A stretch of DNA of 64,000 nt from a bacterium. Its GTDB lineage: Bacteria; Patescibacteriota; Minisyncoccia; Phycocordibacterales; UBA2100. Positions within the stretch are counted from its first letter, which is position 1. Every line of letters starts with the position of its first letter. Below, one piece after another: positions 2,777 through 62,561 of the stretch. The position numbers were made by a program, and so were the translations under genes. The stretch lies in contig JAUSGQ010000007.1 of the NCBI GenBank assembly GCA_030674455.1, forward strand, positions 19,947-83,946, written 5' to 3'. Under the pieces are notes generated by a model, which saw only the letters and a program-made list of their open reading frames with translations, ran no database searches and was not told the DNA's origin.

Positions 2777-4213
2777 TTGCTTCAACATATGCTTGACCTT
2801 GGAGAAAAGTGCGGCGTTTTTGGAGTTTACGGGGAAGGATTGGACGTCGCGCGTATAACTTTCTTCGGTCTATTTGCACTTCAACATAGGGGTCAGGAAA
2901 GCTCCGGTATCGCATCTTCTGATGGCAAACGCATTGAATCGCACAAGGGCATGGGGCTCGTCTCGCAGGTCTTTTCCGAAGACGACATAAAAAAACTAAC
3001 CGGCCATATCGCTATCGGGCATAACCGGTATTCAACTGCCGGTGGGTCTCATGCGGATCACGCGCAGCCGACTATCGTGGGCGATTGGAGCATAGCTCTC
3101 GCTCACAACGGCAATATTCCCAGCACAGCCGCTTTGGAGGAATTCCTTCGGGCTCGGAATATTGAAACTGACAAACTTTCTGATTCTAGAATGATAGCGC
3201 AGGCAATCGCCGTGCTTGAGGGTGAAGGAGCGACACTGGAAGACGCGATTAAGAAAGCGTACCCGCTTATGACAGGTGCGTTTTCAATTCTTATAATGTC
3301 GAAAGATAAGCTGATCGCGATTCGCGATGAGTGTGGAATTCGCCCGCTTTCAATCGCAAAGCTCAACGGCGGCTTTGTATTTTCCTCCGAGACATGCGCA
3401 TTTCAAACAGTTGGTGCGGAATTTATTCGCGATGTAAATCCGGGTGAGATGGTAGTAGTAGACGCGAGCGGTTTGCGCGGTGAACAGCTTGTTCCTGCAA
3501 ATCCGAAGTTGGACATATTTGAATTCGTTTACTTTGCTCGACCGGATAGTCATTTACTGGGGAAATCGGTCTATGATGTGAGAAGGAATTTCGGCGTACA
3601 ACTTGCCAAGGAATATCCGCTTCGCGCGGATGTGGTTATCCCCGTTCCGGAAACAGCGATTCCGGTGGCAATCGGCTACGCAAACGAGTCCGGCATTCCG
3701 CTTGAAATGGGGCTGACAAAAAATCGTTACATTCACCGCACATTTATTGAGCCCGAACAGCACATCCGCGACCAGGGGGTGCGAGCGAAGCTCACCCCCA
3801 TTGCTGAAGTTATTAAGGGCAAACGTGTTGCGGTTATCGACGATTCAATAGTGCGCGGCACTACCTCCAGAAAAATCGTCGAGATGCTTTTCGGTGCAGG
3901 CGCTTCTGAAGTGCATTTTCTCGTCTCTTCTCCGCCGATAATGTTCCCTGATTTTTACGGTATTGATACTCCAAAACAGAAGAATCTTTTGGCATCCGAT
4001 AAGTCAATTCTTGAAATGAAGTCGTACCTTGGCGCAACATCGCTTAATTTTCTCTCATACATTGGAATGATAAAAGCAACCGGAATTTCGGAAGACCAGT
4101 TTTCAACGTCGTGTTTTACCGGAGAGTATCCAATAGACATCAAAGAGCGCATGAAGGAAATTGTAGCTAAGAAAGTCTGCTATACGCCGTTTGCGGATAA
4201 ACTGTCGGATTGA
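2777..4213 (+). CDS. purF: amidophosphoribosyltransferase (glutamine PRPP amidotransferase)
   Basis: N-terminal CGVFGV nucleophile motif and a PRTase domain; 478 aa. Confidence 0.9.
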   Translation: MLQHMLDLGEKCGVFGVYGEGLDVARITFFGLFALQHRGQESSGIASSDGKRIESHKGMGLVSQVFSEDDIKKLTGHIAIGHNRYSTAGGSHADHAQPTIVGDWSIALAHNGNIPSTAALEEFLRARNIETDKLSDSRMIAQAIAVLEGEGATLEDAIKKAYPLMTGAFSILIMSKDKLIAIRDECGIRPLSIAKLNGGFVFSSETCAFQTVGAEFIRDVNPGEMVVVDASGLRGEQLVPANPKLDIFEFVYFARPDSHLLGKSVYDVRRNFGVQLAKEYPLRADVVIPVPETAIPVAIGYANESGIPLEMGLTKNRYIHRTFIEPEQHIRDQGVRAKLTPIAEVIKGKRVAVIDDSIVRGTTSRKIVEMLFGAGASEVHFLVSSPPIMFPDFYGIDTPKQKNLLASDKSILEMKSYLGATSLNFLSYIGMIKATGISEDQFSTSCFTGEYPIDIKERMKEIVAKKVCYTPFADKLSD

Positions 4214-10956: not shown

Positions 10957-12474
10957 TTGGCTATGGAAAAGACTAAGAATATCTTGCTGAAACGGCCATG
11001 GGTTACCGGTGTGGTCGTTATCGTTGCCGCTCTTGGCTTATGGTATTTCACGCGCTCAAATCAACCAGAGACAATCGACTATGTCGTAGTGGAACGCGGC
11101 ACTGTCGCACAGCTGGTTTCTGTGACAGGCATTGTAAAGGCCGCGAGCGAAGTAGACCTATCGTTTGAAAAAGGCGGCAAAATTACAGGAGTCTTTCACG
11201 GCGTTGGAGAAAGGGTAGGCGCCGGTTCAGCGCTCGTATCTATAGGCAGCGGGGAACTCTCGGCGCAAATAGCGCAGGCAGAGGCAGATGTAAAAGCCCA
11301 ACAGGCGAAACTTGCAGAGCTGGAGCGGGGGGCACGGCCGGAAGACATCGCTGTTTCAGAAGTTGATGTCGAGAATGCAAAAAATGATGTAGTAAATAGC
11401 ATACAGAGTGCGTATCTGAATGCAGACGACGCAATGCGCAACAAGGTTGACCAGCTGTTCTCAAATCCGCGTTCAGATTCTCCCACGTTTAATTTCAATC
11501 TTAGCGATTCGAAACTTAAAAACAAGCTCGAAACGGAACGAGTTCTGATAGAAACTCTATTAAGGAGCTGGAATACCGAGATTTCTAATTCCATTGTAGA
11601 GGTTGACGTCGAACCGTACATCACATTGACAAAAAATAATTTGGCGACGGTACAGAGCTTTCTTGACGAAGTCGCGTTCGCGGTCAACTCCCTGCAATCA
11701 AGCACGTTACTAACTCAAACGACGCTCGACGCCTATAGAGCTGCCATACTTGCCGGCAGAACCAACGTCTCAAATGCGATTGACAGTATAGTTTCTGAGC
11801 AAGAAACTTTACGTACTGCCGTATCAAAATTGGCACTAAAGAAAGCGGGCACAAGTAAAGAGGAAATTGACGCACAAGCGGCTAGAGTGGCCTCGGTGGA
11901 AGCAAGCGTTTTGAATCTCAAAGCTCAGCTCGCAAAGACCGTGATTTATTCGCCTATCTCCGGCATAGTAACGAAACAAGATGCAAAACTTGGAGAGATA
12001 GCTACTGCGGGAACTGTTCTCACATCTATAATTTCAGACGCTAAATATCAAATCGAAGCCAATGTAGCGGAAGCGGATATAGCAAAAATAAAAATCGGCG
12101 ATGACGCGCGCGTAACCCTTGATGCGTACGGCAGCGATGTTGTGTTTGGCGCCCGCGTAACAAAAATAGACCCGGCCGAAACTATCATTGACGGAGTGCC
12201 GACGTATAAAACGACTCTGCAATTTGTGCAGAATGATGCGCGAATTCGCTCCGGCATGACGGCAAATACGGATATCGCGGGACAAAAGCGTGAGACTGTA
12301 CTTTTTATTCCGGGCCGCGCCGTTCTAGGAAAGGGGACCGATAAGACAGTAGCCCTAGTAGGGGGTGCGACGACGACCGAAGTTAAAATCGAAACGGGTT
12401 TGCGCGGTTCGAACGGGGACGTGGAAGTGATATCCGGGCTTAACGAAGGCGACAGAATAAAGGCCAGCCAATAA
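10957..12474 (+). CDS. HlyD/MacA-like periplasmic adaptor (efflux membrane-fusion protein)
   Basis: N-terminal TM anchor, a coiled-coil region and a C-terminal beta-barrel domain. It is followed by ABC ATPase and FtsX permease genes. Confidence 0.75.
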   Translation: MAMEKTKNILLKRPWVTGVVVIVAALGLWYFTRSNQPETIDYVVVERGTVAQLVSVTGIVKAASEVDLSFEKGGKITGVFHGVGERVGAGSALVSIGSGELSAQIAQAEADVKAQQAKLAELERGARPEDIAVSEVDVENAKNDVVNSIQSAYLNADDAMRNKVDQLFSNPRSDSPTFNFNLSDSKLKNKLETERVLIETLLRSWNTEISNSIVEVDVEPYITLTKNNLATVQSFLDEVAFAVNSLQSSTLLTQTTLDAYRAAILAGRTNVSNAIDSIVSEQETLRTAVSKLALKKAGTSKEEIDAQAARVASVEASVLNLKAQLAKTVIYSPISGIVTKQDAKLGEIATAGTVLTSIISDAKYQIEANVAEADIAKIKIGDDARVTLDAYGSDVVFGARVTKIDPAETIIDGVPTYKTTLQFVQNDARIRSGMTANTDIAGQKRETVLFIPGRAVLGKGTDKTVALVGGATTTEVKIETGLRGSNGDVEVISGLNEGDRIKASQ

Positions 12475-12498: not shown

Positions 12499-13230
12499 TT
12501 GGAACTTGCGAAGCATATGCCTCTCATTGAAGTGAAGAATCTCGAGAAAACGTATCACGATGAGGAGGTCGCGACTCAAGTGTTGTTTGGTCTGGACATC
12601 AAGATAAATAAGGGCGAATTTGTGGCCATCATGGGACCATCGGGTTCAGGAAAATCCACGCTTCTTCAGATCCTTGGATTTCTTGACCCGCCCACGGGAG
12701 GCGAGTACTTATTTGATAATAAGAACTCAACGGATTATTCCGAATATGAGGTCGCAAAAGTGAGAAACGAGCGGCTCGGATTTATTTTTCAGTCTTTTAA
12801 CCTGCTTCCGAGAACGACGGTGCTCGATAATGTGAAGCTTCCGCTTGTGTACTCTTCAACGAAGGAGGAGCTTTGGGATGGCATCGCGCGCAAAGCGGTG
12901 GATTCGGTGGGGCTTTCGCATCGCCTCGACTTTGAGCCTTCACAGTTGTCAGGCGGGGAAAAACAGAGAGTCGCTATTGCCCGCGCGCTTGTAAATAATC
13001 CGGATGTCATTTTTGCAGATGAACCAACCGGGAATCTTGATTCAAAATCGGGCGAGATTGTGATGGGCATCATCGGGATGCTTCACGCGAAATTTGGCCA
13101 CACGATAGTCCTCATCACGCACGAAACATATACTGCCGAATACGCCGAGAGAATTATTAAATTGCGCGACGGCAGGATTGAAAGCGACATGAAAGTCGCC
13201 AACCGCCGCGCAGGCGGTTTTATCAAGTAA
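12499..13230 (+). CDS. ABC transporter ATP-binding protein (MacB/LolD-like)
   Basis: Walker A GPSGSGKST, signature LSGGEKQR and Walker B IFADEPTGNLD. The start may be Met at 12517. Confidence 0.9.
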   Translation: MELAKHMPLIEVKNLEKTYHDEEVATQVLFGLDIKINKGEFVAIMGPSGSGKSTLLQILGFLDPPTGGEYLFDNKNSTDYSEYEVAKVRNERLGFIFQSFNLLPRTTVLDNVKLPLVYSSTKEELWDGIARKAVDSVGLSHRLDFEPSQLSGGEKQRVAIARALVNNPDVIFADEPTGNLDSKSGEIVMGIIGMLHAKFGHTIVLITHETYTAEYAERIIKLRDGRIESDMKVANRRAGGFIK

Positions 13231-13238
13231 CAAATCGT

Positions 13239-14477
13239 ATGCCGATTAACCACGCCATTCAAACGGCCTTTCGGGGGCTTAAAGCGAACAAAACACGCTC
13301 TGCACTCACCATACTAGGGATAGTAATCGGGGTCACGGCCATCATCATGGTGGTTTCGCTCGGGCAGGGCGCAAAGAACCTGATTTTAGGCCAAATTCAG
13401 GGTATTGGGGCGAAAACTATCGGCATTGTCCCGGGCCGTCAACCCAAAGGTCCGACTGATATTTTGGCAACGCTCACCGCGTCGCTAAAGGCGCGGGACA
13501 TCGTTGCATTGTCTCGAAAAGATAATGTACCGCATGCGCAGGACATCATGCCAGTAGTTTTTGGAAGCGAGACCGCGTCATACGGAGGTGAAACCTACAG
13601 GCCGACGATATTCGGGGGCAATGAACTGATGGCCGACATTTACGATTCGTATCCCGATCGCGGCAGAAGCATAACGGCAGACGACGTGCGCAGCTCCGCG
13701 GACGTGGTTGTCTTAGGTCAAACGGTAGTTGAAAAGCTTTCTCCCGACCATGACCTTTTGAACGAACGCATAAAAATCAAAGGTAGGAATTTCTTGGTAA
13801 TCGGAATACTTCCGAAAAAGGGCGGGGCCTCATTCATTAACTTTGATGAAATGGCGCTCATGCCGTACACAACCGCTCAAAATTATATTTTTGGCATCAA
13901 GCACTTTAATCGCGTGGTAGTAAGGGCTGACGATGAGTTGAATGTTGATGTGACTGTTAATGACATAAAGTCTACGCTTAGAGAACTGCACGGTATTACC
14001 GACCCGGAGAAAGACGATTTTGGCATTGAGACGCAGGCCGATGCACTGAAAACAGTCGGTACGATCCTCACCACCATGACGGTATTTCTGGCTATGGTTG
14101 CGGCAATATCGCTCGTAGTGGGAGGCATAGGAATTATGAACATAATGCTTGTTTCCGTGACGGACAGAACGCGGGAAATCGGGCTGCGAAAAGCGCTCGG
14201 CGCGACCAATAGAGACATTCTTATGCAATTCCTGCTTGAGGCAATCATCTTGACCGGCATTGGGGGAATCGTAGGCATTTTATTGGGTACCGGACTTTCA
14301 TTTGCAATTTCTTTAGTGATTACAAATGTGTTCGGTCTGATTTGGTCGTTTACATTCCCTCTAGGCGCTGCGATAGTCGGGATTCTAATTTCAACCATTG
14401 TTGGTCTTGTGTTCGGTCTTTACCCCGCTAGAAAGGCCTCACTGATGAGTCCTATTGAGGCTCTTCGGCACGAGTAG
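13239..14477 (+). CDS. ABC transporter permease, FtsX/MacB family
   Basis: MacB-type periplasmic domain and a C-terminal FtsX 4-TM domain. Confidence 0.85.
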   Translation: MPINHAIQTAFRGLKANKTRSALTILGIVIGVTAIIMVVSLGQGAKNLILGQIQGIGAKTIGIVPGRQPKGPTDILATLTASLKARDIVALSRKDNVPHAQDIMPVVFGSETASYGGETYRPTIFGGNELMADIYDSYPDRGRSITADDVRSSADVVVLGQTVVEKLSPDHDLLNERIKIKGRNFLVIGILPKKGGASFINFDEMALMPYTTAQNYIFGIKHFNRVVVRADDELNVDVTVNDIKSTLRELHGITDPEKDDFGIETQADALKTVGTILTTMTVFLAMVAAISLVVGGIGIMNIMLVSVTDRTREIGLRKALGATNRDILMQFLLEAIILTGIGGIVGILLGTGLSFAISLVITNVFGLIWSFTFPLGAAIVGILISTIVGLVFGLYPARKASLMSPIEALRHE

Positions 14478-14532
14478 CCTTTATTCACTTGCAGCGAATT
14501 CAAAGAGCGCGCTGGCTTTCATACGGGGCAGG

Positions 14533-14587
14533 CCCCGCTAGAAAGGCCTCACTGATGAGTCCTATTGAAGCCCTTAGACACGAATAA
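14533..14587 (+). pseudogene. duplicate of the permease 3' terminus (encodes PARKASLMSPIEALRHE*), part of a ~110-bp tandem duplication
   Basis: The first 37 nt are identical to 14423..14459. The last 6 codons differ only synonymously, so the peptide is identical. Confidence 0.75.
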
Positions 14588-14686
14588 ACTTAATTATCTT
14601 GCTGTGTAAGTTATTGATCACGCTGGCCTCCTTACGGGGCATGCGACCGCCAAAGAAACTTTCTCAATTTTGCCAAGACAGAATGT

Positions 14687-14718
14687 CAACGATATCTCAC
14701 GGTCGTGAGATATCGTTG
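14687..14718. promoter_or_regulatory. perfect 15-bp inverted repeat CAACGATATCTCACG-GT-CGTGAGATATCGTTG (operator-like)
   Basis: The palindrome is visible on inspection. There is no T-run, so it is not a typical terminator. Confidence 0.4.
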
Positions 14719-15019
14719 AATGCTTGTGAGCTCCAAAATATGAAACTTAGCGCGCTTACGCAGTCCTAGAAATCGCAAATATGATACAATCGCCATCTAT
14801 GAATATTGACGAGTTGCAAGAAAAAAGCGACAAGATGTTCCATGACCATGGCGATATTCTTATAAAAGTCTTTTCCGTTCTCGTTGCGTTTATTCTCCTG
14901 GCTCTTTGGTTTGCATCTACTGTCCGTCCGCAGGATTTTGCGCCAACCGATATTCAGCAACAAAATAGCTAGAATCTGTTGCGCTGACTCGCCTCATTCA
15001 TACATGGTATTATCAACGT

Positions 15020-24536: not shown

Positions 24537-24590
24537 ATGTTATATTGCTCAGTACCAACCCTAGCGCAAAGCGAGGGTCGGTTTGTGTTT

Positions 24591-27287
24591 ATGTCAAAAA
24601 AAAACGAACATTCAGGGGAAGCCGAGAAAATCGTAGTTAAAGGCGCACGCACGCATAACTTGAAGAACATCACGGTAGAAATACCGCGGAATAAAATGGT
24701 GGTTTTTACAGGCCTTTCCGGCTCTGGGAAATCATCTCTCGCTTTTGACACCATATTTGCCGAGGGCCAGCGCAAATACGTGGAGTCTCTTTCTGCCTAT
24801 GCCCGTCAGTTCTTGCGGCAAATGCAAAAACCGGATGTCGATGAGATATCCGGCCTATCTCCTGCCATTTCAATAGACCAAAAATCGCGCTCGAATAATC
24901 CACGTTCCACAGTCGCTACAATTACCGAAATCTATGATTATCTGCGTGTTCTCTATGCGAGAGTAGGCAAACCTCACTGCACTATCTGCGGCAGGGAAGT
25001 TAAGAAACATACGAATGAGGAGATACTTGAGTCAGTTCTCAAAATAGTGGACAAGGCTCGAAAGTACCAAGGAGAGACCTTAAAATACCCAAGGTCTCAC
25101 CTTAAGGTTCAAGATAAGAAGCTCACAAAAAATGTATCGAGCGCAAAGGTCACAATAACGTCACCGGTGGTTGTCGGTAGAAAAGGGGAGTACTACCAGC
25201 TTCTTTATGACTTGCTCAATAAGGGATTCGAGAAAGTAATAATTGATGGCGAAGAGAAGAAGCTGCGTGAAAGAATCATTCTCGAGAAGAATCATAAACA
25301 CGATATAGATGTCGTGGTCGATGAAATATTTGTCAGTGAATTTGCCGACGATGCGAAAGCTGCGCGCGAACGGGCATCGGAAGCTATCGAAAGAGCTCTG
25401 CATGAATCCAATGGGCTGGTAAAGATAATAGGCGCGAGCGGAGAATCACACATTGTCTCGGCAAAGTTTATGTGCCCGTACGACGGATTCTCATTTCCTG
25501 AAATCGAGCCGCGGCTCTTTTCGTTCAATTCTCCGCATGGCGCTTGCCCCGCATGCAATGGCCTAGGTTCTAAGTATTTCTTTGGCGACGAGCCGTGCGA
25601 TGTGTGTAATGGTGCCCGGTTGCGTCCGGAGGCATTAAATGTGTTTCTTGGGACAAATAGTCGAGGAGACACCTCGCAAGCGAGGAGCCACCTCGACTCA
25701 CCCCATGGTCTGCATATTGTCGATTTAAGCTCGTCATCTATAGACGACGCAAAGAAATTCTTTGACTCGCTTAAACTTACCAAAAAGGAAGAGGAAATAT
25801 CCAAGGTCGTAATCAAAGAAATTATGAGCCGGCTGCGCTTTATGCAAGATGTCGGCATTGAATACTTAACACTCGACCGAAAAGCCAACACTCTATCGGG
25901 CGGTGAAGCACAGCGCATTCGTCTGGCATCACAGCTTGGAAGCGGGCTCGTTGGCGCGCTCTATGTGCTTGATGAGCCGACAATCGGGCTTCACCAGCGC
26001 GACAACGACAAACTTATTGAGACTCTCAAACACCTGCGCGATATCGGCAATACAGTAATCGTGGTAGAACACGATGAGGACACCATTTTCGCATCCGATT
26101 ACATCGTGGATCTAGGCCCTGGCGCTGGCATTCATGGAGGTAATGTCGTGGTGTCGGGGTGGCTCGATGAGCTATTGACCGCCAAATCCAATAAGTCCGG
26201 CTCGCGTACTCTTGCGTATCTACGTGGAGAGTCATCAATTGAAACGCCGGAGAAATGGCGAACTGCTGACAGAGGAAAGATAAAAATTCGCGGGGCTTCA
26301 AAATTTAACATTAAAAATATAAACGTTGATATACCGCTCGGCAAACTTGTGGCAATCACGGGGGTGTCTGGTTCCGGCAAGTCGACGTTTCTCTATGAGA
26401 TGCTTCATCGCAATTTGCTGGCGCGCTTTGATAAGCGGTACCGTACGGCAAAAATCTACAACTGCAAGGAATTCAGCGGAACGGAATATCTTTCACGCTC
26501 CATATTGATTGATCAATCGCCCATAGGAAGAACCCCGCGCTCAAATCCTGCAACGTACACAGGTGCTTTCACGCACATTCGCGACCTATTCGCGATGAGC
26601 GAGGATGCTCGAGCGCGCGGATGGGGTCCGGGACGATTTAGCTTCAATGTAAAAGGCGGGCGATGTGAGGTATGCCAGGGCAACGGCCTTGTCGCTGTCG
26701 AAATGCACTTTTTGCCGACGGTCTATGTCACATGCGACATGTGCAACGGAAAACGTTTTATGAAGGAGACACTTGATGTTAAATATAAAAAGAAAAGCAT
26801 TTATGACGTGTTATCCATGACCGTCGAAGAGGCCTCGGCCTTCTTTGAGGATGTTCCTGCAATATCTGACAGGTTAAAAACTTTGTCTGATGTTGGCCTG
26901 GACTATCTAGAACTCGGCCAGAGCGCGACAACTCTATCCGGCGGTGAAGCGCAGCGAGTGAAAATTGCGTCAGAACTATATCGGCCGTTGGATGCAAAAA
27001 CGATGTACCTGTTGGATGAACCCACTGTGGGACTCCACTACGACGACGTGCAAAAACTTATCGATATATTGCAAAAGCTGGTTCAGCGGGGAAATAGCGT
27101 CGTTGTTATCGAACACAATCTTGATGTCTTGAAATGCGCAGATTGGATTATGGATATGGGACCGGAAGGAGGCGCCGGAGGCGGCGAAATCGTAGCCCGA
27201 GGAACGCCGCTCGAAGTTTCTAAAACCGACGGCTCATACACCGGATATTATCTGAAGCGAGTTTTGAAGAGAAAGGTAAAAGATTGA
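24591..27287 (+). CDS. uvrA: excinuclease ABC subunit A
   Basis: Two ABC modules with zinc-finger Cys clusters. The start is set at Met 24591 to avoid overlapping the terminator. Confidence 0.95.
25660..25697. repeat. in-frame imperfect palindrome or direct repeat in uvrA (GTCGAGGAGACACCTCGC-AA-GCGAGGAGCCACCTCGAC), encoding [14 protein letters not shown]
   Basis: It uses the same CGAGGA/TCCTCG word as the uvrB insert. Relative to E. coli UvrA as I recall it, this region is about 18 aa longer. Confidence 0.55.
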
Positions 27288-27538: not shown

Positions 27539-30500
27539 TTATGTATATGCATCGACCGAGATAGATTTGAGTTCAGACGCCTTAATTCCTGCAAAAGCCA
27601 TGATGAATGCCTCGGCAAGCTGGCGATTGGTTATGAGCGGTATATTCAAGTCCACCGCTTTTCGGCGGATTATGTAGCCGTCTATCGCATCGCGGCCAAA
27701 TGCTTGAGCGGGAATATTTATTATCAAATCTACTTTACCTTTCTCTATAAGCGTTCCTACATTGGGCTCCTTGCCTCCGATTTTATAAACCTTTTCACAT
27801 GCAATTCCATTTTCTCTCATAAAATCGGCAGTATGCTCGGTGGCAAATAACTTGAAATTCATTTTGGCCAATTCTTGCAGAGCGGATAGTAATTTAATTT
27901 TATTTTCCTCTTTTCCCAAGGAAATCAGTATATTTCCCGACGCTTTGGTCGGGATCCCGACCTCGCTTCGCGAGCGTCGGGACTTATACGGCAATCTCCG
28001 ACGCTTTGGTCGGGGCAGGCGGAATCCTGAAGCAAGCATTGATTTAATCAGAGCTTCTGAAAATGTATCACCAAAACAAGCGACTTCGCCGGTAGAAGCC
28101 ATTTCCACGTTGGAAACGGGGTCGGCACCCTTTATGCGCGCATAGGAGAATTGCGGCGACTTTACTGCAATGTAATCAAGTTCAAGGGTGCGATAATCGC
28201 CGGAAACGTCTTTACCGAGCATCGCGCGCGTAGCAATATCAATAAAGTTATATCCCGTAGCTTTTGACACGAAAGGAAAGCTTCGAGATGAACGAACATT
28301 GCACTCAATGACTTGCAAATGGTTATCTTTTGCGATGAATTGAATATTGAACGGGCCGGTAATTTTCAGTTCTTTGACGACGTCCTTCGTGATGTGTTTA
28401 GCTCGTCGAATTGTCTCCATATATGTGCGCTGGGGAGGCAAAACCACCGTAGCGTCGCCAGAGTGCGTGCCGGCATTTTCGACGTGCTCCGTAATCGCGT
28501 AAATTATGAGCTTCCCGCGCGAAGCAACTCCGTCAATTTCAATTTCCCGCGCATTCTCGATAAATTTGGAAATCACGACCGGATGTTCCGTAGAGATATC
28601 AACCGCGCGTTTGAGAAAGCGCAAAAGAGATGTCTCGTCGTGCGCAACGCTCATCGCAGAGCCGGAGAGAACATATGACGGCCGGACAAGCACGGGATAT
28701 CCGATTCGCGCCGCAGCTATCGCTGCTTCTTTATGAGTAGTAAGTTCTACCCACTCGGGCTGATCAATTTCGAGCCTATCAAGAAGTTTAGAGAATGTGT
28801 GCCTGTCTTCGGCGCGGTCTATATCTTCTGGTTTTGTTCCCATGATTCTTACTCCTCGCTTATGCAGTGGGAGCGCGAGATTATTCGGAATTTGGCCGCC
28901 AGTAGAAATTACGACTCCTCGCGCTTTCTCAAATTGATAAATATCTAGAACACGCTCAAGCGAAAGTTCTTCAAAATACAGTCGGCTCGACATGTCGTAG
29001 TCGGTTGAAACGGTCTCCGGATTTGAATTTATCATTATCGTTTCGTATTCATTTTTTGAAAGAGTTTTTAACGCTTGTACGCAAGACCAATCAAATTCTA
29101 CCGACGAACCGATGCAATACGGTCCGCTTCCAAGGACGATCATACTTTTCTTGGTGCGACCTATATCATTCTCGGTCCCGTTATACGTCACATACAGATA
29201 ATTTGTTTTGGCGGGAAATTCTCCAGCCAAAGTGTCGATTTGCTTTATAACTGGCAGGATTTTGTGGCGCATTCGCTCCTGTCGGATCTTATCCTCAGTA
29301 CTTTTAATCAATGTGGCAATTTGAATATCAGAAAAACCAAGCTTCTTAGCCTCGAGCATGTCTTCTCTAAGAAGGTCTGACCTTCCAGGAAGGTCAGACC
29401 TTCTGAGATTTCTCGAGCAACGCATGATGTTCTTCATTTTTTCTAGAAACCACGGATCAATGCCGCCGGAAAGACGGCTGATCTTTGAGACGGACGTACC
29501 TCTGCGAAGTGCCTCTGCAATGGCAAAAATGCGGCGGGTAGTCGGGTGCTTGATTTCATCCAGATAATTTGCCACGCGAAAGTTACCATTTTTATGCGCT
29601 ACAAAACCATCCGCGCCAATGGAAAGCATACGAATAGCTTTCTGCAGTACCTCCTCAAAACTTCTGCCGATTGCCATCACTTCTCCCACACTTTTCATCT
29701 CCGTACCAATTTGCGTGATGGCATTCTCAAATTTCGTCAAATCCCAGCGCGGCATTTTAAGCACGATGTAATCAAGCGCCGGCTCGAAACAGGCCGTCGT
29801 GGATTTGGTTACCGAGTTTTTTAGTTGCGGCAGAGTAAAGCCCATTGCGAGTTTCGCCGCAATGAACGCGAGCGGATATCCTGTGGCCTTTGAGGCAAGC
29901 GCAGATGAGCGGGAAAGGCGCGCATTAACTTCTATGACGCGATAATCTCCGGTTTTCGGATGAAGCGCGTACTGTATATTGCATTCTCCCACGACGCCGA
30001 GATGCCTGATGGTCTTTATCGCGATTTCGCGCAAGCGATGATACTCCTCGTTCGTAAGAGTTTGTGACGGCGCCACGACCATACTTTCGCCCGTATGAAT
30101 GCCCATCGGGTCTATGTTTTCCATATTGCAAACGGAAATGCAGTTGTCGGTTCTGTCGCGCACAATTTCATACTCAACTTCTTTCCAACCGCACAAATCT
30201 TCTTCGATCAATACCTGCGGACTCGAGCCAAAGATTTCTGACAGTTTAGCGACAAGTTCTTTTTCCGTACGAACCACTCCGGAGCCAAGGCCGCCCAAGG
30301 CGAATCCCGCGCGCAACATGACCGGATAACCGATTTTTGTCGCCGCCTTTTTGGCATCAGATATATTTCTTGCTGCGAAACTTCGCGCTGTCTTAACATC
30401 AATTTTTTGCAGCCGCTTTATGAACATGTCTCTATCTTCTGTTTCGCGTATGACAGATACCGGTGTTCCCAAAACCTGCACTTTGTATTTAGAGAGAATC

Positions 30501-30838
30501 CCTTTCTCCTCCAGTTCAAGGCCGAGATTAAGCGCGGTTTGGCCGCCGAACCCTAGGAGAATCGCATCGGGTTTTTCTTTCTTGATAACCTGTACGGCAA
30601 ACGGCAAGGTAAGTGGCAAGAGGTAGACGACGTCTGCTACGTTTTCACTCTTTGCATCAGTTCCTTGAGCTGGCGAGTCCGTTTGAACTGTTGCGATATT
30701 CGGATTTATGAGTATGACGCGAATGCCTTCTTCTTTAAGAGCCTTAATCGCTTGTGTGCCGGAGTAATCAAATTCTCCGGCCTGACCGATTTTAAGACCG
30801 CCTGAACCGAGCAACAATACTTTTTTTATGGTCGTCAT
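27539..30838 (-). CDS. carB: carbamoyl-phosphate synthase large subunit
   Basis: 1099 aa with two ATP-grasp halves and an MGS-like C-terminal domain. Confidence 0.95.
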   Translation of the reverse strand: MTTIKKVLLLGSGGLKIGQAGEFDYSGTQAIKALKEEGIRVILINPNIATVQTDSPAQGTDAKSENVADVVYLLPLTLPFAVQVIKKEKPDAILLGFGGQTALNLGLELEEKGILSKYKVQVLGTPVSVIRETEDRDMFIKRLQKIDVKTARSFAARNISDAKKAATKIGYPVMLRAGFALGGLGSGVVRTEKELVAKLSEIFGSSPQVLIEEDLCGWKEVEYEIVRDRTDNCISVCNMENIDPMGIHTGESMVVAPSQTLTNEEYHRLREIAIKTIRHLGVVGECNIQYALHPKTGDYRVIEVNARLSRSSALASKATGYPLAFIAAKLAMGFTLPQLKNSVTKSTTACFEPALDYIVLKMPRWDLTKFENAITQIGTEMKSVGEVMAIGRSFEEVLQKAIRMLSIGADGFVAHKNGNFRVANYLDEIKHPTTRRIFAIAEALRRGTSVSKISRLSGGIDPWFLEKMKNIMRCSRNLRRSDLPGRSDLLREDMLEAKKLGFSDIQIATLIKSTEDKIRQERMRHKILPVIKQIDTLAGEFPAKTNYLYVTYNGTENDIGRTKKSMIVLGSGPYCIGSSVEFDWSCVQALKTLSKNEYETIMINSNPETVSTDYDMSSRLYFEELSLERVLDIYQFEKARGVVISTGGQIPNNLALPLHKRGVRIMGTKPEDIDRAEDRHTFSKLLDRLEIDQPEWVELTTHKEAAIAAARIGYPVLVRPSYVLSGSAMSVAHDETSLLRFLKRAVDISTEHPVVISKFIENAREIEIDGVASRGKLIIYAITEHVENAGTHSGDATVVLPPQRTYMETIRRAKHITKDVVKELKITGPFNIQFIAKDNHLQVIECNVRSSRSFPFVSKATGYNFIDIATRAMLGKDVSGDYRTLELDYIAVKSPQFSYARIKGADPVSNVEMASTGEVACFGDTFSEALIKSMLASGFRLPRPKRRRLPYKSRRSRSEVGIPTKASGNILISLGKEENKIKLLSALQELAKMNFKLFATEHTADFMRENGIACEKVYKIGGKEPNVGTLIEKGKVDLIINIPAQAFGRDAIDGYIIRRKAVDLNIPLITNRQLAEAFIMAFAGIKASELKSISVDAYT
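27935..28015. repeat. structured insert in the carB C-terminal region (direct repeats TCCCGACGCTTTGGTCGGG x2 with CTCGCTTCGCGAG between), encoding RPKRRRLPYKSRRSRSEVGIPTKAS on the minus strand
   Basis: Nested hairpins are visible. An arginine-rich segment of about 25 aa is absent from E. coli CarB at this position, as I recall it. Confidence 0.6.
29370..29404. repeat. perfect 17-1-17 palindrome AGAAGGTCTGACCTTCC-A-GGAAGGTCAGACCTTCT in frame in carB, encoding RRSDLPGRSDL
   Basis: The palindrome reads RSDLPGRSDL on both strands. It appears to be an 11-12-aa insertion relative to other CarB sequences. Confidence 0.75.
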
Positions 30839-30843
30839 ATGAG

Positions 30844-30943
30844 TGCCAATCTACAAATGGACTCCAATCTACAAATAACTACGAATAAGCAATGCTCACA
30901 TTTGTAGCTATTCGTAGTATTCGGATGATTCGTAGATTGGGAC
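30844..30943. repeat. ~100-bp composite palindromic repeat (CCAATCTACAAAT ... ATTCGTAGATTGG), family copy R1 of 6, REP/BIME-like
   Basis: It shares words with the copies at 42502, 47001, 48156, 49350 and 61654, and it fills the carA-carB spacer. Confidence 0.85.
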
Positions 30944-42501: not shown

Positions 42502-42597
42502 CCCAATCTACGAATCATCCGAATACTACAAATGACTGCAAATACTCGCATTTCTTATTCGTAGACATTTGTAGATTGGAATCCATTTGTAGATTGG
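42502..42597. repeat. composite GTAG-palindromic repeat, copy R2, filling the recR-dnaB spacer
   Basis: It has the words CCAATCTACGAAT and ATTTGTAGATTGG, the latter twice. Confidence 0.85.
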
Positions 42598-42601
42598 CAC
42601 T

Positions 42602-47000: not shown

Positions 47001-47114
47001 CCCAATCTGCAAATATATTCCAATCAACGAATGAATCCCAATCTACAAATGGCTACGAATGGACAATGCTTACATTTGTAGTTATTCGTAGTATTCGTAT
47101 CATTTGTAGATTGG
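47001..47114. repeat. composite GTAG-palindromic repeat, copy R3 (ends 7 nt before the mltG start)
   Basis: Same family. Confidence 0.85.
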
Positions 47115-47120
47115 AACTCT

Positions 47121-48155: not shown

Positions 48156-48266
48156 GCCAATCTGCGAATGATACGAATACTACGAATGGCTACAAATGTG
48201 AGTGTTGATTATTCGTAGTTATTTGTAGATTGGAATATATTCGTAGATTGGTACTTGTTAGATTGG
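48156..48266. repeat. composite GTAG-palindromic repeat, copy R4
   Basis: Same family. Confidence 0.85.
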
Positions 48267-48273
48267 AACATGT

Positions 48274-49392
48274 ATGTCAAAAACAGTTTTCGTTGGTTTG
48301 TCGGGTGGCGTCGATTCCGCCGTTTCGGCTGCGCTGCTTAAAGAGCAAGGCTATAACGTCGCTGGCGTATTCATAAAAATCTGGCAACCTGAATTTATAG
48401 AATGCACGTGGGCGAAAGACCGTCTGGACGCGATGCGCGTTTGCGTTTCGCTCGGAATCCCGTTCCAGGAAATAGACCTTTCATCTGATTACAAACGCAC
48501 GGTTGTGGACGACATGATCTCCGCATATTCGCGCGGCATCACTCCAAATCCGGATGTCCTGTGCAATAGACACATAAAATTCGGCAGTTTTATGAACTAT
48601 GCGCGCAAAGAGGGTGCGGATTATATTGCGACGGGACATTACGCCCGTGTCGCCTTAGGCGACCGCAGATTTACGCAGAAAGAACCCAAAAACGTATACA
48701 AATTATTAAGAGGGTCAGATAACAATAAAGACCAGTCATACTTCTTGTACTTATTGAAACAGGATGACCTTGTGCATACGCTATTCCCCGTGGGAAATCT
48801 TTTAAAGTCAGAGGTAAGGAAGCTTGCAGCTAAGTTTTCTCTTCCTGTTGCAGAAAAATCCGATAGCCAAGGATTGTGCTTTGTCGGCGATGTGACGATG
48901 AAGGATTTTCTCTCGAGATATATGAAACTCGACGAAGGAAAAGTCATAGATACAAATGGCACATGCATAGGCAGTCACGAAGGAGCTGCGCTTTATACGA
49001 TAGGACAACGACACGGATTCACAACCGAGCGCCTTGCGGGTGACAGAACCCCGTACTATGTCGTCTCTGTTAATATTCCCGCGAATACAATAACTGTTTC
49101 CACAAGGCGCGACGACGCAACGCAAAAAGATATACGCATCGACTCAATGCATTGGATATCGGGCGCTCCGGAAATGCCGTTGCGCGCACAAACACAGGCG
49201 AGATATAGAGAAAAACCGAGCGAAGCAACAATTTCTGTAGAGGGTGGAGGTGTGAGCGTTGCTTTTGATGAGCCGCAAATTGCCGCGGCCGGGCAATCGA
49301 TCGTTGTGTATAACGACGACACATGTTTAGGCGGAGGCACCATAGAGTACCAATCTACGAATGAATTCCAATCTACAAATAACTACGAATAA
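48274..49392 (+). CDS. mnmA: tRNA-specific 2-thiouridylase MnmA. The last ~14 codons (YQSTNEFQSTNNYE) are encoded by repeat copy R5.
   Basis: PP-loop SGGVDS and MnmA domains. The ORF reads into the repeat before reaching a stop. Confidence 0.9.
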   Translation: MSKTVFVGLSGGVDSAVSAALLKEQGYNVAGVFIKIWQPEFIECTWAKDRLDAMRVCVSLGIPFQEIDLSSDYKRTVVDDMISAYSRGITPNPDVLCNRHIKFGSFMNYARKEGADYIATGHYARVALGDRRFTQKEPKNVYKLLRGSDNNKDQSYFLYLLKQDDLVHTLFPVGNLLKSEVRKLAAKFSLPVAEKSDSQGLCFVGDVTMKDFLSRYMKLDEGKVIDTNGTCIGSHEGAALYTIGQRHGFTTERLAGDRTPYYVVSVNIPANTITVSTRRDDATQKDIRIDSMHWISGAPEMPLRAQTQARYREKPSEATISVEGGGVSVAFDEPQIAAAGQSIVVYNDDTCLGGGTIEYQSTNEFQSTNNYE

Positions 49393-49444
49393 TCATTTCT
49401 CCACATTTGTAGCCATTCGTAGTATTCGTGCATTCGTAGATTGG
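49350..49444. repeat. composite GTAG-palindromic repeat, copy R5
   Basis: Same family. Confidence 0.85.
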
Positions 49445-49459
49445 GACTATACTATTTAA

Positions 49460-50341: not shown

Positions 50342-50449
50342 GTACAGTATACAGTATTCCGTATTCCGTATTCTGTATTCTGTATTTTTTATACAGTATA
50401 CTAGATACTGAATACAGTATACACGTTTAAGGGTGCTATACTTTGAATT

Positions 50450-52713: not shown

Positions 52714-52742
52714 CTTCTACCAAGGTCTTACCTTGGTAGAAG
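52714..52742. repeat. 27-bp GTAG-type palindrome CTTCTACCAAGGT-CTT-ACCTTGGTAGAAG (REP-like, left flank of RAYT). It begins 2 nt after the ung stop, and its right arm encodes the RAYT C-terminal LLPR.
   Basis: The palindrome is visible. Inverted-centre copies lie at 53439..53465 and 53235..53258. Confidence 0.85.
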
Positions 52743-53420
52743 TTCGTTATCATCTTGCCGAGCATATATTTTTGCCTCCTCGATAAGTTGGTCAATCGTT
52801 TGCGAAGCATCGAGTATTTCCAACACCGGCTCTTTGTTTATGATAGAGGACTCCGGACGCGTTCCTGAGTAGTCGAGAAAACTGGAGTACTGATACTCCG
52901 ATAAAAATTTCCGCAAATTCTTTTCGTTCTGTATCGAACATTGTTTCCATTTCGGCTCTATTAGCTCTGCAGGGTTTGCATGAATATAACTAACTACTCT
53001 ATTTAGATTCTGATCCGACTCTATTCGTTTCGCCTTAAAGGTGCCTTGAAACAATGCTCCGTTACGTTCGTATTTGATATTGAAGTACATCGTGTAGCCC
53101 GTTCCGAGCTGTCGCATAAAGGATGTGATGCCTCCATAATTATGTTCACGTAAAAACAGGTGATGATGGTTTGGCATCAGGCAGTACGCGCCAATGTCCA
53201 CGAGTTTTTCTTTTCTCTCAACTGCCGCCACGAGTTCTACCAAGGTCTTACCTTGGTTGATGTTGCTGATATGTATTGGTTCGCGACTGTTACATGCATA
53301 TAGAAGCATCACAAATCGCTCGTAGTCTTCTGGATTTGTGAAAACGACCCGCTTATCAACGCCGCGATTGTAGCAGTGATACCATTCGTTCGGTGCGAAG
53401 GAAATTGTTCGCTGTCCCAT
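52728..53420 (-). mobile_element. IS200-like HUH tyrosine transposase (REP-associated tyrosine transposase, RAYT-like)
   Basis: WYHCYNRG (YHVxxRG-like), HUH motif CLMPNHHHLFL and catalytic-Tyr region YIHANPAE. The track ORF starts at TTG 53510, but the likely start is Met 53420. Confidence 0.75.
53235..53258. repeat. internal copy of the RAYT-flank palindrome (TTCTACCAAGGTCTTACCTTGGTTGA) in frame inside the RAYT gene (encodes INQGKTLVEL)
   Basis: Same word, with arms degenerate by 2 nt. Confidence 0.7.
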
Positions 53421-53438
53421 ATCGATAATAATAACATG

Positions 53439-53465
53439 TTCTACCAAGGTAAGACCTTGGTAGAG
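53439..53465. repeat. right-flank palindrome TTCTACCAAGGT-AAG-ACCTTGGTAGAG (centre inverted relative to the left copy)
   Basis: The REP pair is in inverted orientation around the RAYT gene. Confidence 0.85.
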
Positions 53466-53484
53466 ACTTCCAGTGGATAAGAGT

Positions 53485-58493: not shown

Positions 58494-58562
58494 ACATAAT
58501 TTTTACACTACTTACTACTAACTACCGACTACTAACTATTTTCTGCGTTATAATGTTAGCTA

Positions 58563-61446: not shown

Positions 61447-61653
61447 ATGGCCGAACAAGAATCTGTGGAAGGAGTTGTTGAGGAAGCTCTTCCGAATACG
61501 CTTTTTCGAGTGAGAATGCCGTCGGGAGAATTAGTAATCGCGTATCTGGCCGGCAAGATGCGCCTGCACAGGATAAAAGTCCTTGTGGGAGATAAGGTTT
61601 CCGTGCATCTCGACCCATACGGAGGTCGCGCGCGAATTATAAGGAGGGTTTAG
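61447..61653 (+). CDS. infA: translation initiation factor IF-1
   Basis: S1-like domain (GVVEEALPNTLFRVRM...). Confidence 0.9.
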   Translation: MAEQESVEGVVEEALPNTLFRVRMPSGELVIAYLAGKMRLHRIKVLVGDKVSVHLDPYGGRARIIRRV

Positions 61654-61749
61654 TTCCAATCTGCAAATGAATTCCAATCTACAAATAACTACAAATGAGA
61701 AAGCGGATATTCGTAGCCATTTGTAGTATTCGTATCATTCGTATATTGG
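61654..61749. repeat. composite GTAG-palindromic repeat, copy R6, between infA and rpmJ
   Basis: Same family. It starts immediately after the infA stop. Confidence 0.85.
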
Positions 61750-61758
61750 TACATATTT

Positions 61759-62416: not shown

Positions 62417-62561
62417 TCTTTTCTAGAAAGTAGCAAGTATCAAGTATCATGTATCAAACAATATCCAAGCATCAAATCAATAAATCAAAAACTTTCACTT
62501 ATCACTTAATTACTGATACTTATTTGATACTTGCTAATTGAGACTTGATACTTAATGTAAT

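Follow-up and report, generated by a model that had tools for sequence, protein, structure and literature searches.

Genomic islands and prophages that move by means of an integrase insert at the 3' ends of tRNA, tmRNA, or protein-coding genes and bring a replacement for the end that they displace, and serial integration at one gene leaves displaced fragments in tandem. Williams, in "Traffic at the tmRNA gene," reportedly provides an example of islands that carry replacement 3' ends. Sequential displacement in polymorphic-toxin loci yields the orphan C-terminal modules of CDI and Rhs systems. Folded hairpins serve as recombination substrates in integron attC sites, in the attP(+) site of CTX phage, and at the ends of IS200/IS605 elements. 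The effector/immunity modules of the Vibrio cholerae type VI secretion system form arrays by sequential displacement (PMC5361080), and the minimal mobile elements of Neisseria are described as insertions whose exchange relies on transformation and on homologous recombination in the conserved genes at their flanks (PMC3787668).

The locus described here is the 3' end of a permease gene in a 64,000-nucleotide stretch of DNA (the window, meaning the whole stretch that was analyzed), where the gene end lies in a cassette of ∼110 nucleotides (nt). The cassette resembles an integrase island in that a new end restores the gene, the old end remains as a downstream direct repeat, arrivals stack, and the differences between copies are allele-like; it differs from an island in its size, in that no integrase, cargo, or attP-bearing element was found with it, and in that the flanks of one locus (L171, below) have the appearance of an exchanged patch. 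Polymorphic-toxin arrays are similar in that the new module arrives by recombination anchored in a conserved upstream gene and the previous one is kept downstream as an orphan; however, their modules span kilobases and bring a new toxin domain and an immunity gene, whereas the cassette brings almost the same 17 residues and no gene. Minimal mobile elements likewise have no mobility genes, are locus specific, and need competence and flank homology. They are whole-gene cassettes between two conserved genes, whereas the right-hand homology here is the displaced gene end and the unit is 110 nt. Compared with known footprints, the differences are the 110-nt scale, the lack of any gene, cargo, or change of protein function, and a conserved self-complementary end. 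A limited literature search, aimed at related mechanisms, found no published description of the 110-nt cassette.

The gene encodes a MacB/FtsX-type ABC transporter permease with Pfam matches to MacB_PCD (3.2e-37) and FtsX (1.2e-18). It is the last gene of an operon that begins with an HlyD-like gene (10957-12474) and an ABC ATPase gene (12499-13230), and on its 3' side are a small open reading frame (ORF) and then lysS, encoding LysRS. The neighbors recorded at the locus were HlyD-like, ABC ATPase, small ORF, LysRS, Zincin_1, and Peptidase_M10. An exact-protein look-up returned no entry for the window permease; the protein P0001 is 100% identical to it. The closest relatives are metagenome-assembled Patescibacteria (CPR), whose source labels vary (Saccharibacteria, Parcubacteria, Kaiserbacteria, and Paceibacterota). 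C-terminus types were drawn from the best 120 homologues, among which ...AAAK[S/N]PIEALRYE and related forms dominate. The window permease, which ends in ...GLYPARKASLMSPIEALRHE followed by the stop codon, has a different type, ...AS[LQYR]M[S/N]PI[DE]ALR[HY]E, referred to here as M class. The features of the locus are as follows.

13239 to 14477, + strand: MacB/FtsX-type ABC transporter permease gene, 412 amino acids (ORF list, translation, and Pfam).
14423 to 14477, + strand: copy 1, the functional gene end, M class, forming the 5' part of cassette 1 (aligned with M-class ends from six other lineages).
14478 to 14532, + strand: tail 1 of cassette 1, variable at 14478-14509, followed by the region of the conserved 23-mer, GCGCTGGCTTTCATACGGGGCAGG, at 14510-14532.
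14533 to 14587, + strand: copy 2, the displaced former gene end, out of frame with the gene, forming the 5' part of cassette 2.
14588 to 14643, + strand: tail 2 of cassette 2, with a decayed motif, GCTGGCCTCCTTACGGGGCATG, that has 3 mismatches to the consensus.
14423 to 14438, + strand: left arm of the inverted repeat, CCCCGCTAGAAAGGCC, which encodes P-A-R-K-A (RNAalifold consensus helix and pair counts).
14514 to 14528, + strand: right arm of the inverted repeat, GGCTTTCATACGGGG, which also pairs with the start of copy 2.

A tandem duplication of the permease 3' end had been reported in the first-pass annotation and was found at 14423-14477 and 14533-14587. Both copies encode (Y)PARKASLMSPIEALRHE followed by a stop codon, and copy 1 is the true 3' end of the permease ORF. 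The identical tract at the start of the copies, given as 37 nt, is 36 nt long, since position 37 already differs (GAG/GAA). Downstream of it the copies differ at 6 nt in 5 codons: GAG/GAA, GCT/GCC, CGG/AGA (2 nt), GAG/GAA, and TAG/TAA. All of these differences are synonymous, as had been claimed, although the original list omitted one of the two GAG/GAA pairs; the probability that 6 random substitutions in the last 19 nt would all be synonymous is 4e-5. The tails of ∼55 nt described as related do align (14478-14532 and 14588-14643, with a 1-nt indel), and the whole units of 110 and 111 nt are 79.5% identical over 112 columns (E = 5.7e-21). Divergence is uneven along the unit, with 0 differences in the first 36 nt, 6 in the next 19, and ∼40% in the tails, which is not like a recent simple duplication. 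Within the 64-kb window, the 22-mer form of the conserved motif was found only at 14511-14532 (1 mismatch) and 14622-14643 (3 mismatches), where 0 occurrences are expected. The permease had been counted as the third gene of the window with a duplicated 3' end. This count was not borne out: when each ORF end in the window was compared with the DNA that follows it, at both the nucleotide and the protein level, the permease was the only case, and the self-similar segments at 25848/26889 and 28999/30676 belong to repeats inside large genes. From 14644 onward, behind tail 2, the similarity to a degenerate class-B gene-end remnant was not significant (P about 0.06-0.08).

Comparison of the locus with related genomes, which the first-pass annotation had proposed, revealed the same cassette layout in six other lineages. 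The seven lineages, counting the window, include L001, L171/L172, L177, L188/L189, L190, and L191. In all of them the cassette lies directly after the Tyr codon of G-L-Y-P-A-R-K-A in the orthologous MacB/FtsX-type permease, is 109 to 113 nt long, and consists of a 55-nt M-class end, ∼32 variable nt, and the conserved 23-mer GCTGGCCTTCATACGGGGCAGG. The replacement end is of the type xM[S/N]PI.ALR[H/Y]E plus stop. Behind the cassette stands the lineage's own earlier gene end, displaced and intact except in L177, where the cassette is followed by 130 extra noncoding nt and then by only the last 16 nt of an AAAK-type end. The displaced ends are of the types AAAKNP (L171), ASKLNP (L188), AAAKSP (L190), and AAKLNP (L191). 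That of L188/L189 (PARRASKLNPIEALRYE and stop) is protein-identical to the functional end of the tree neighbor P0040; those of L190 and L191 read PARQAAAKSPIEALRYE and PARRAAKLNPIDALRYE, each with its stop.

Slippage cannot produce a layout in which heterologous native ends stand behind the same cassette. The resemblance of the displaced ends to the functional ends of the nearest relatives shows, in addition, that they were displaced recently and independently, which rules out slippage and a single ancient vertical duplication. Slippage-type duplication was therefore rejected on the basis of both the uneven divergence and the heterologous ends. The earlier interpretation of the duplication, as a scar between homologous alleles and not a product of slippage, is supported by these ends, and synonymous-only differences are also the pattern expected of two functional alleles of a gene end. 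No integrated element or recombinase was found at the locus.

One relative matches the window more fully. L001, whose permease is ∼82% identical to that of the window, has the same arrangement of two M-class copies, spaced by 109 nt versus 110 nt in the window, and its copies are more like each other than like the window copies. Among 139 FtsX-type permease loci from genome and metagenome scans, a duplicated end was found only in L001. The closer relatives L163, L164-168, L169, and L170 have a single end, with only 35 to 51 nt before the small ORF. M-class ends also occur without the tail (L163 and L176). The architecture is present in independent assemblies from NCBI, JGI, ENA, and Logan.

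L171 and L173 form the sole closely matched pair of filled and empty loci. Their genes are ∼90% identical; L171/L172 have the M-class end, and L173-175 have an AAAK-type end. L171 differs from L173 by one clean 113-nt indel right after the TAC codon of G-L/I-Y-P-A-R-K-A. The extra DNA consists of an M-class end, its stop codon, and a 58-nt tail that ends in CTTACTGGGCAGG, and an intact AAAK-type end lies directly behind it. Compared with the functional end of L173, this displaced end has 3 mismatches in its first 17 nt and then more than 40 identical nt. After the stop codon the two loci have the next 9 to 10 nt in common (ACCT[A/G]CGAC), and L173 then has a 41-nt insertion of its own. In a divergence scan over the 1,184-nt comparison (background, 10.5%), the 22 nt upstream of the junction contained 7 mismatches, the maximum for the gene, a level reached in 3 of 1,163 windows of the scan, all at the junction. 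These mosaic flanks, as read from this one alignment, indicate that ∼155 nt were exchanged as a patch whose crossovers lay in the gene and the displaced end, and they do not fit a precise cut-and-paste event. No target-site duplication was seen at the L171/L173 junctions beyond a shared CCCGC. An extra 249-amino-acid ORF in L171 had no significant Pfam match.

The distribution of the cassette was examined next to the phylogeny of its hosts. When the last 20 residues are left out of the tree, the M-class permeases still fall at 8 or more separate positions, interspersed with AAAK-type relatives. The tails of L001 and L190 are 83% identical (77% in the variable part), whereas four-fold sites of the host genes are 34% identical, which is saturation. 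L177 and L190 are sister hosts; their tails are 56% identical in the variable part and their genes 50% identical at four-fold sites, values that suggest roughly neutral evolution of that part. The scatter of M-class ends, together with 83% tail identity between saturated hosts, requires horizontal movement. The motif was found only at these permease loci in a search of 1.6 Mb of fetched DNA, from which viral loci chosen by means of the pattern had been excluded.

The two ends of the cassette are complementary. The core of the 23-mer, GGCCTTCATACGGGG, is complementary in inverted orientation, though imperfectly, to the 16 nt with which the cassette begins, CCCCGCACGAAAGGCC. The helices predicted by RNAalifold, one of 5 pairs and one of 7, enclose a loop of ∼78 nt in which the stop codon lies. 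Across 8 cassettes, 95.8% of the cells in these 12 pairs are paired; a shift of the register by one lowers this to 58%. The bases vary at a single pair, which is G-C in 5 cassettes, A-U in 2, and G-U in 1. Covariation was not significant (81 of 500 shuffles reached the observed level), and the left arm is constrained in any case, because it codes for PARKA. Folding of single sequences was not exceptional (z = −1.2 and −0.75). A consensus scan found no promoter or intrinsic terminator inside the cassette and no terminator-like U tract, and an Rfam 15 scan of window positions 14300-14900 and of L177 positions 3000-3500 gave nothing better than E = 0.25, with all scores far below gathering thresholds. 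The junction hairpin that the right arm forms with the start of the next copy has a folding energy of −17.9 kcal/mol in the window (14514-14548) and −20.0 kcal/mol in L001 and is stable only there. The first-pass annotation had proposed a test of whether the junction coincides with a recombinase core; since the palindrome is strong only in the window and L001, where the following copy is itself M class, it does not represent a general core site. The inverted repeat, as modeled, could be a stem at the transcript 3' end or a structure recognized by a recombinase. Conservation of the 23-mer far above that of the adjacent spacer points to a function or a recognition site.

These properties were compared with those of known element types. 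The arrangement shares with an integrative element bounded by attL and attR the restoration of the gene by the incoming copy, with the old end downstream (L171 versus L173; also L188, L190, and L191). That identity was rejected: across the seven lineages only 54 to 59 nt separate the repeats, without an ORF, and a larger version did not turn up. A viral attP was sought in IMG/VR in three scans that used core and tail patterns, and these returned only chance matches in GC-rich coding DNA. Terminal inverted repeats of 12 bp in two blocks would suit a miniature inverted-repeat element, with the left arm being coding sequence; a MITE or other dispersed repeat was rejected on the basis that there is no target-site duplication and that the motif is confined to the permease locus in the 64-kb window and in the 1.6 Mb of loci. 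The resemblance to attC-like substrates lies in the two short helices, an internal loop, an extrahelical base, a long variable loop, and a size within the attC range. The cassette differs in having no integrase or array context at its locus and in a pairing that is conserved without covariation support, and an integron gene cassette was rejected because the ends given above do not have the GTT/AAC core of RYYYAAC...GTTRRRY. A diversity-generating retroelement (DGR) was considered because a near-copy lies just downstream of a gene 3' end and the downstream copy has A in 5 of the 6 window differences. The target here, however, does not correspond to a variable ligand-binding domain, and a template/variable repeat pair was rejected: every window change is synonymous, 12 of the 17 adenines stay the same, and only 2 of 5 L001 differences fall at A.

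A coding role for copy 2, by frameshift, read-through, or as a small ORF, was also rejected, since copy 2 is not in the same frame in all genomes and only 3 of 6 have a start codon for it. An ATG that overlaps the stop codon opens an ORF of 38 to 39 amino acids in L001, L171, and L190 and is absent in the window, L188, and L191. A peptide-profile census of ORFs composed of tail plus displaced end recovered only two, both already known.

We propose, with slightly better than even confidence, that the unit is a gene-end replacement cassette, spread horizontally through homologous recombination in which the displaced end acts as the homology arm on the right. The cassette would enter after the Tyr codon and supply the last 17 codons and the stop; the gene would then end in the cassette copy, and the old end would stay untranslated directly behind the tail. 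A filled locus would be homologous to an empty orthologue on both sides, through the gene body on the left and through the displaced end and downstream DNA on the right. With homology on both sides, RecA-type recombination could integrate the 110 nt from DNA that has been taken up, and the cassette would need no enzyme of its own. Saccharibacteria are naturally competent and integrate linear DNA through flanking homology in a ComEC-dependent manner, and com genes are conserved across the CPR (PMC10633639). We infer that transformation and homologous recombination are the vehicle, and infer likewise the gene conversion and the order of events proposed below; the architecture, the recurrence of the cassette, its horizontal distribution, and the mosaic flanks of the one matched pair are observed.

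In the window, two cassettes are stacked, after either two entries or the duplication of one cassette, with cassette 1 (14423-14532) as the current end and cassette 2 (14533-14643) as the previous one. Cassette 2 is probably the older, judging from its motif, which has 3 mismatches to the consensus versus 1 in cassette 1. The synonymous differences in the last 19 nt may be the residual allelic difference between two ends that were each once functional, and the 36-nt identical tract is most simply explained by short-tract gene conversion between close copies. Conversion is supported by the likeness of copies within two other genomes. In L001, 38 of the first 39 nt are identical between the copies, yet 7 of the first 36 positions are not the same in L001 as in the window; in L190, the last 15 nt of copies 1 and 2 are identical at 14 positions. 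Alternatively, the window may keep a progenitor-type tandem duplication of a native M-class end and its 3' untranslated region (UTR), from which the portable unit arose.

Several observations argue against homologous recombination. Hosts with similar cassettes are only ∼70% identical in the gene, which makes a poor RecA substrate, and the part of the right arm that lies in the displaced end is short. The right junction does not vary between lineages. Conservation of the 23-mer and its pairing with the start of the cassette are not predicted by pure hitchhiking. The main rival is a tiny nonautonomous mobile element that is moved in trans by a site-specific recombinase or by a single-strand recombinase that recognizes hairpins, a possibility that we take seriously and consider unlikely. 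Here the stem, with its internal loop and one extrahelical base, would be the recognition structure, CCCCGC the crossover core, and the replacement end the part that "heals" the target. Such an element would account for the identity of both the insertion point and the right junction in all seven lineages, for a 23-mer conserved beside a neutral spacer, for the 12-bp terminal inverted repeat (95.8% paired, with its one G-C/A-U/G-U pair), for the 5 to 6 nt of CCC(C)GC at both junctions, and for apparent moves between hosts too diverged for easy homologous exchange. However, no recombinase is linked to any of the loci, no copy was found elsewhere in the DNA scanned, and viral contigs yielded no attP-like copy. 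The covariation lacks statistical support, a strong junction palindrome is seen only with an M-class copy 2, and both the integron attC consensus (RYYYAAC/GTTRRRY) and a target-site duplication are absent. An exchanged patch of ∼155 nt, moreover, is indicated by the peak in divergence on the upstream side of the junction and by mismatches in the L171 displaced end. A specific form of this idea, a minimal target-healing element, seems quite doubtful to us: a hairpin-ended single-strand cassette, arriving through competence or copied from a chromosome, would be placed by a host recombinase at one codon of an essential-type transporter gene and would bring no more coding sequence than is needed to keep that gene whole.

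Another alternative is an old in situ tandem duplication of the gene end and 3' UTR in one ancestor that descended vertically, was lost repeatedly, and was kept where a stem in the 3' UTR, formed by the tail and the PARKA codons, was useful, for transcript 3'-end stability or insulation of downstream genes. The window by itself does look like a plain tandem duplication, with no recognizable foreign displaced end after tail 2 (P about 0.07). The conserved stem has the stop codon in its loop, loss by recombination between copies would be easy and harmless, and there are M-class ends with no tail (L163 and L176). Nevertheless, we consider this account distinctly improbable. The displaced ends of L171, L188, L190, and L191 differ in class from copy 1; those of L171 and L188 agree with the ends in use in L173 and P0040, their nearest relatives without a cassette; and the phylogenetic scatter and the 83% tail identity between saturated hosts call for horizontal movement. 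Folding of single sequences is also unexceptional (z = −1.2 and −0.75), and a terminator-like U tract is lacking. An assembly artifact, in which two co-occurring strain variants of a single-cassette locus were joined through the 36-nt exact repeat, is conceivable in a metagenome-assembled genome; the repeat is shorter than some assembly k-mers. This explanation has very little chance of being correct. Two M-class copies are arranged in the same way in L001, which belongs to another species and was assembled independently, and assemblies from four sources contain single cassettes followed by displaced ends. In addition, the junction of tail 1 with copy 2 must exist in reads for any assembly path, and final k-mers of at least 55 would span the repeat.

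Restoration of a gene end with displacement of the old one is a hallmark of integrase islands, and here it results from an insert of ∼110 nt that encodes the replacement end alone and that recurs at one codon in at least five lineages of Patescibacteria. If homologous recombination is the only agent, the cassette would be a natural marker of transformation-mediated exchange between diverged CPR lineages and an example of an insertion that itself creates the homology on its right-hand side. Should the conserved hairpin instead be a recognition site, the cassette would be a new minimal mobile element. The conserved 23-mer offers a simple probe for surveying CPR genomes, and stacked displaced ends provide a readable record of successive allele replacements.

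At L176, a related patescibacterial locus with an M-class gene end and no tail, the stop region (3729-3750) contains an 11-nt tandem repeat, ACACGAGTAAT / ACACGAGTGAT. As a result of the repeat, a second CAC GAG TGA directly follows the real CAC GAG TAA. This is a duplicated gene end in miniature. In L173, a relative with an AAAK-type permease end, 41 nt (3749-3789) are inserted compared to L171, closely 3' of the stop; L174 and L175 are organized likewise. CGAC repeats lie at the flanks of the L173 insertion, and its terminal sequence, CTCACTGCGGGGCATG, is similar to the decayed end of tail 2 in the window, CCTTACGGGGCATG. The insertion may be the relic of an earlier cassette tail behind the AAAK-type end.

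In the cassette-bearing locus L177, ∼130 nt of extra sequence (3219-3348) separates the cassette tail from the truncated displaced end, of which the final 16 nt are present. This segment carries the tail motif as an inverted copy, GAGCCCGACCTGCCCCGTAAC, which pairs with the tail to form a long hairpin (DNA fold of −29.7 kcal/mol; z = −2.3). In the window, ∼110 nt (14644-14753) lacks a counterpart in cassette-free relatives, in which the intergenic gap is just 35 to 51 nt. A perfect hairpin with a 15-bp stem (14686-14719; TCAACGATATCTCAC GGTC GTGAGATATCGTTGA) is located 3' of tail 2 and 5' of the small ORF's promoter-like region.

Elsewhere in the window, families of long intergenic palindromes are made up of units that resemble heptamers (e.g., CCAATCTACAAATGG...CATTTGTAGATTGG; ...TTATTCGCGCGAATAA...), and two large ORFs contain diverged internal repeats.

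Palindromes, heptamer arrays, and repeat-containing ORFs in the window
30846-30943, 42503-42600, 47020-47117, 48157-48254, 49350-49447, 61652-61752: long intergenic palindromes
1541-1581/2610-2650/32775-32815: further long intergenic palindromes
753-784/1394-1425: further long intergenic palindromes
52715-53468: further long intergenic palindromes
374-406, 2688-2719, 50343-50423, 58507-58538, 62428-62457: short heptamer arrays
24537-27287, minus strand: ORF of 916 aa, repeat 25848-26075 versus 26889-27119
27539-30838, minus strand: ORF of 1099 aa, repeat 28999-29113 versus 30676-30790

L173 and the related locus L170 also have hairpins like these palindromes, together with TTACGAC repeats, 3' of the permease gene. 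The repeats in the 916-aa and 1099-aa ORFs are internal to the ORFs and do not represent duplication of a 3' end.

At L171, an inserted ORF of 249 aa (1630-2379) separates the ABC ATPase gene from the permease gene; a Pfam search with this ORF returned no significant match. The same interval in L173, a close relative, holds only a 29-aa ORF.

Among the gene calls P0123 to P0240, many of 25 to 70 aa comprise just the last transmembrane helix and C terminus of FtsX-type permeases (e.g., P0133, P0140, P0156, P0165, and P0188 to P0191). Some are located on long contigs of other phyla (e.g., Lutibacter and Gemmatimonadaceae). These short calls may represent displaced ends or, alternatively, pseudogenes or contig-edge fragments.
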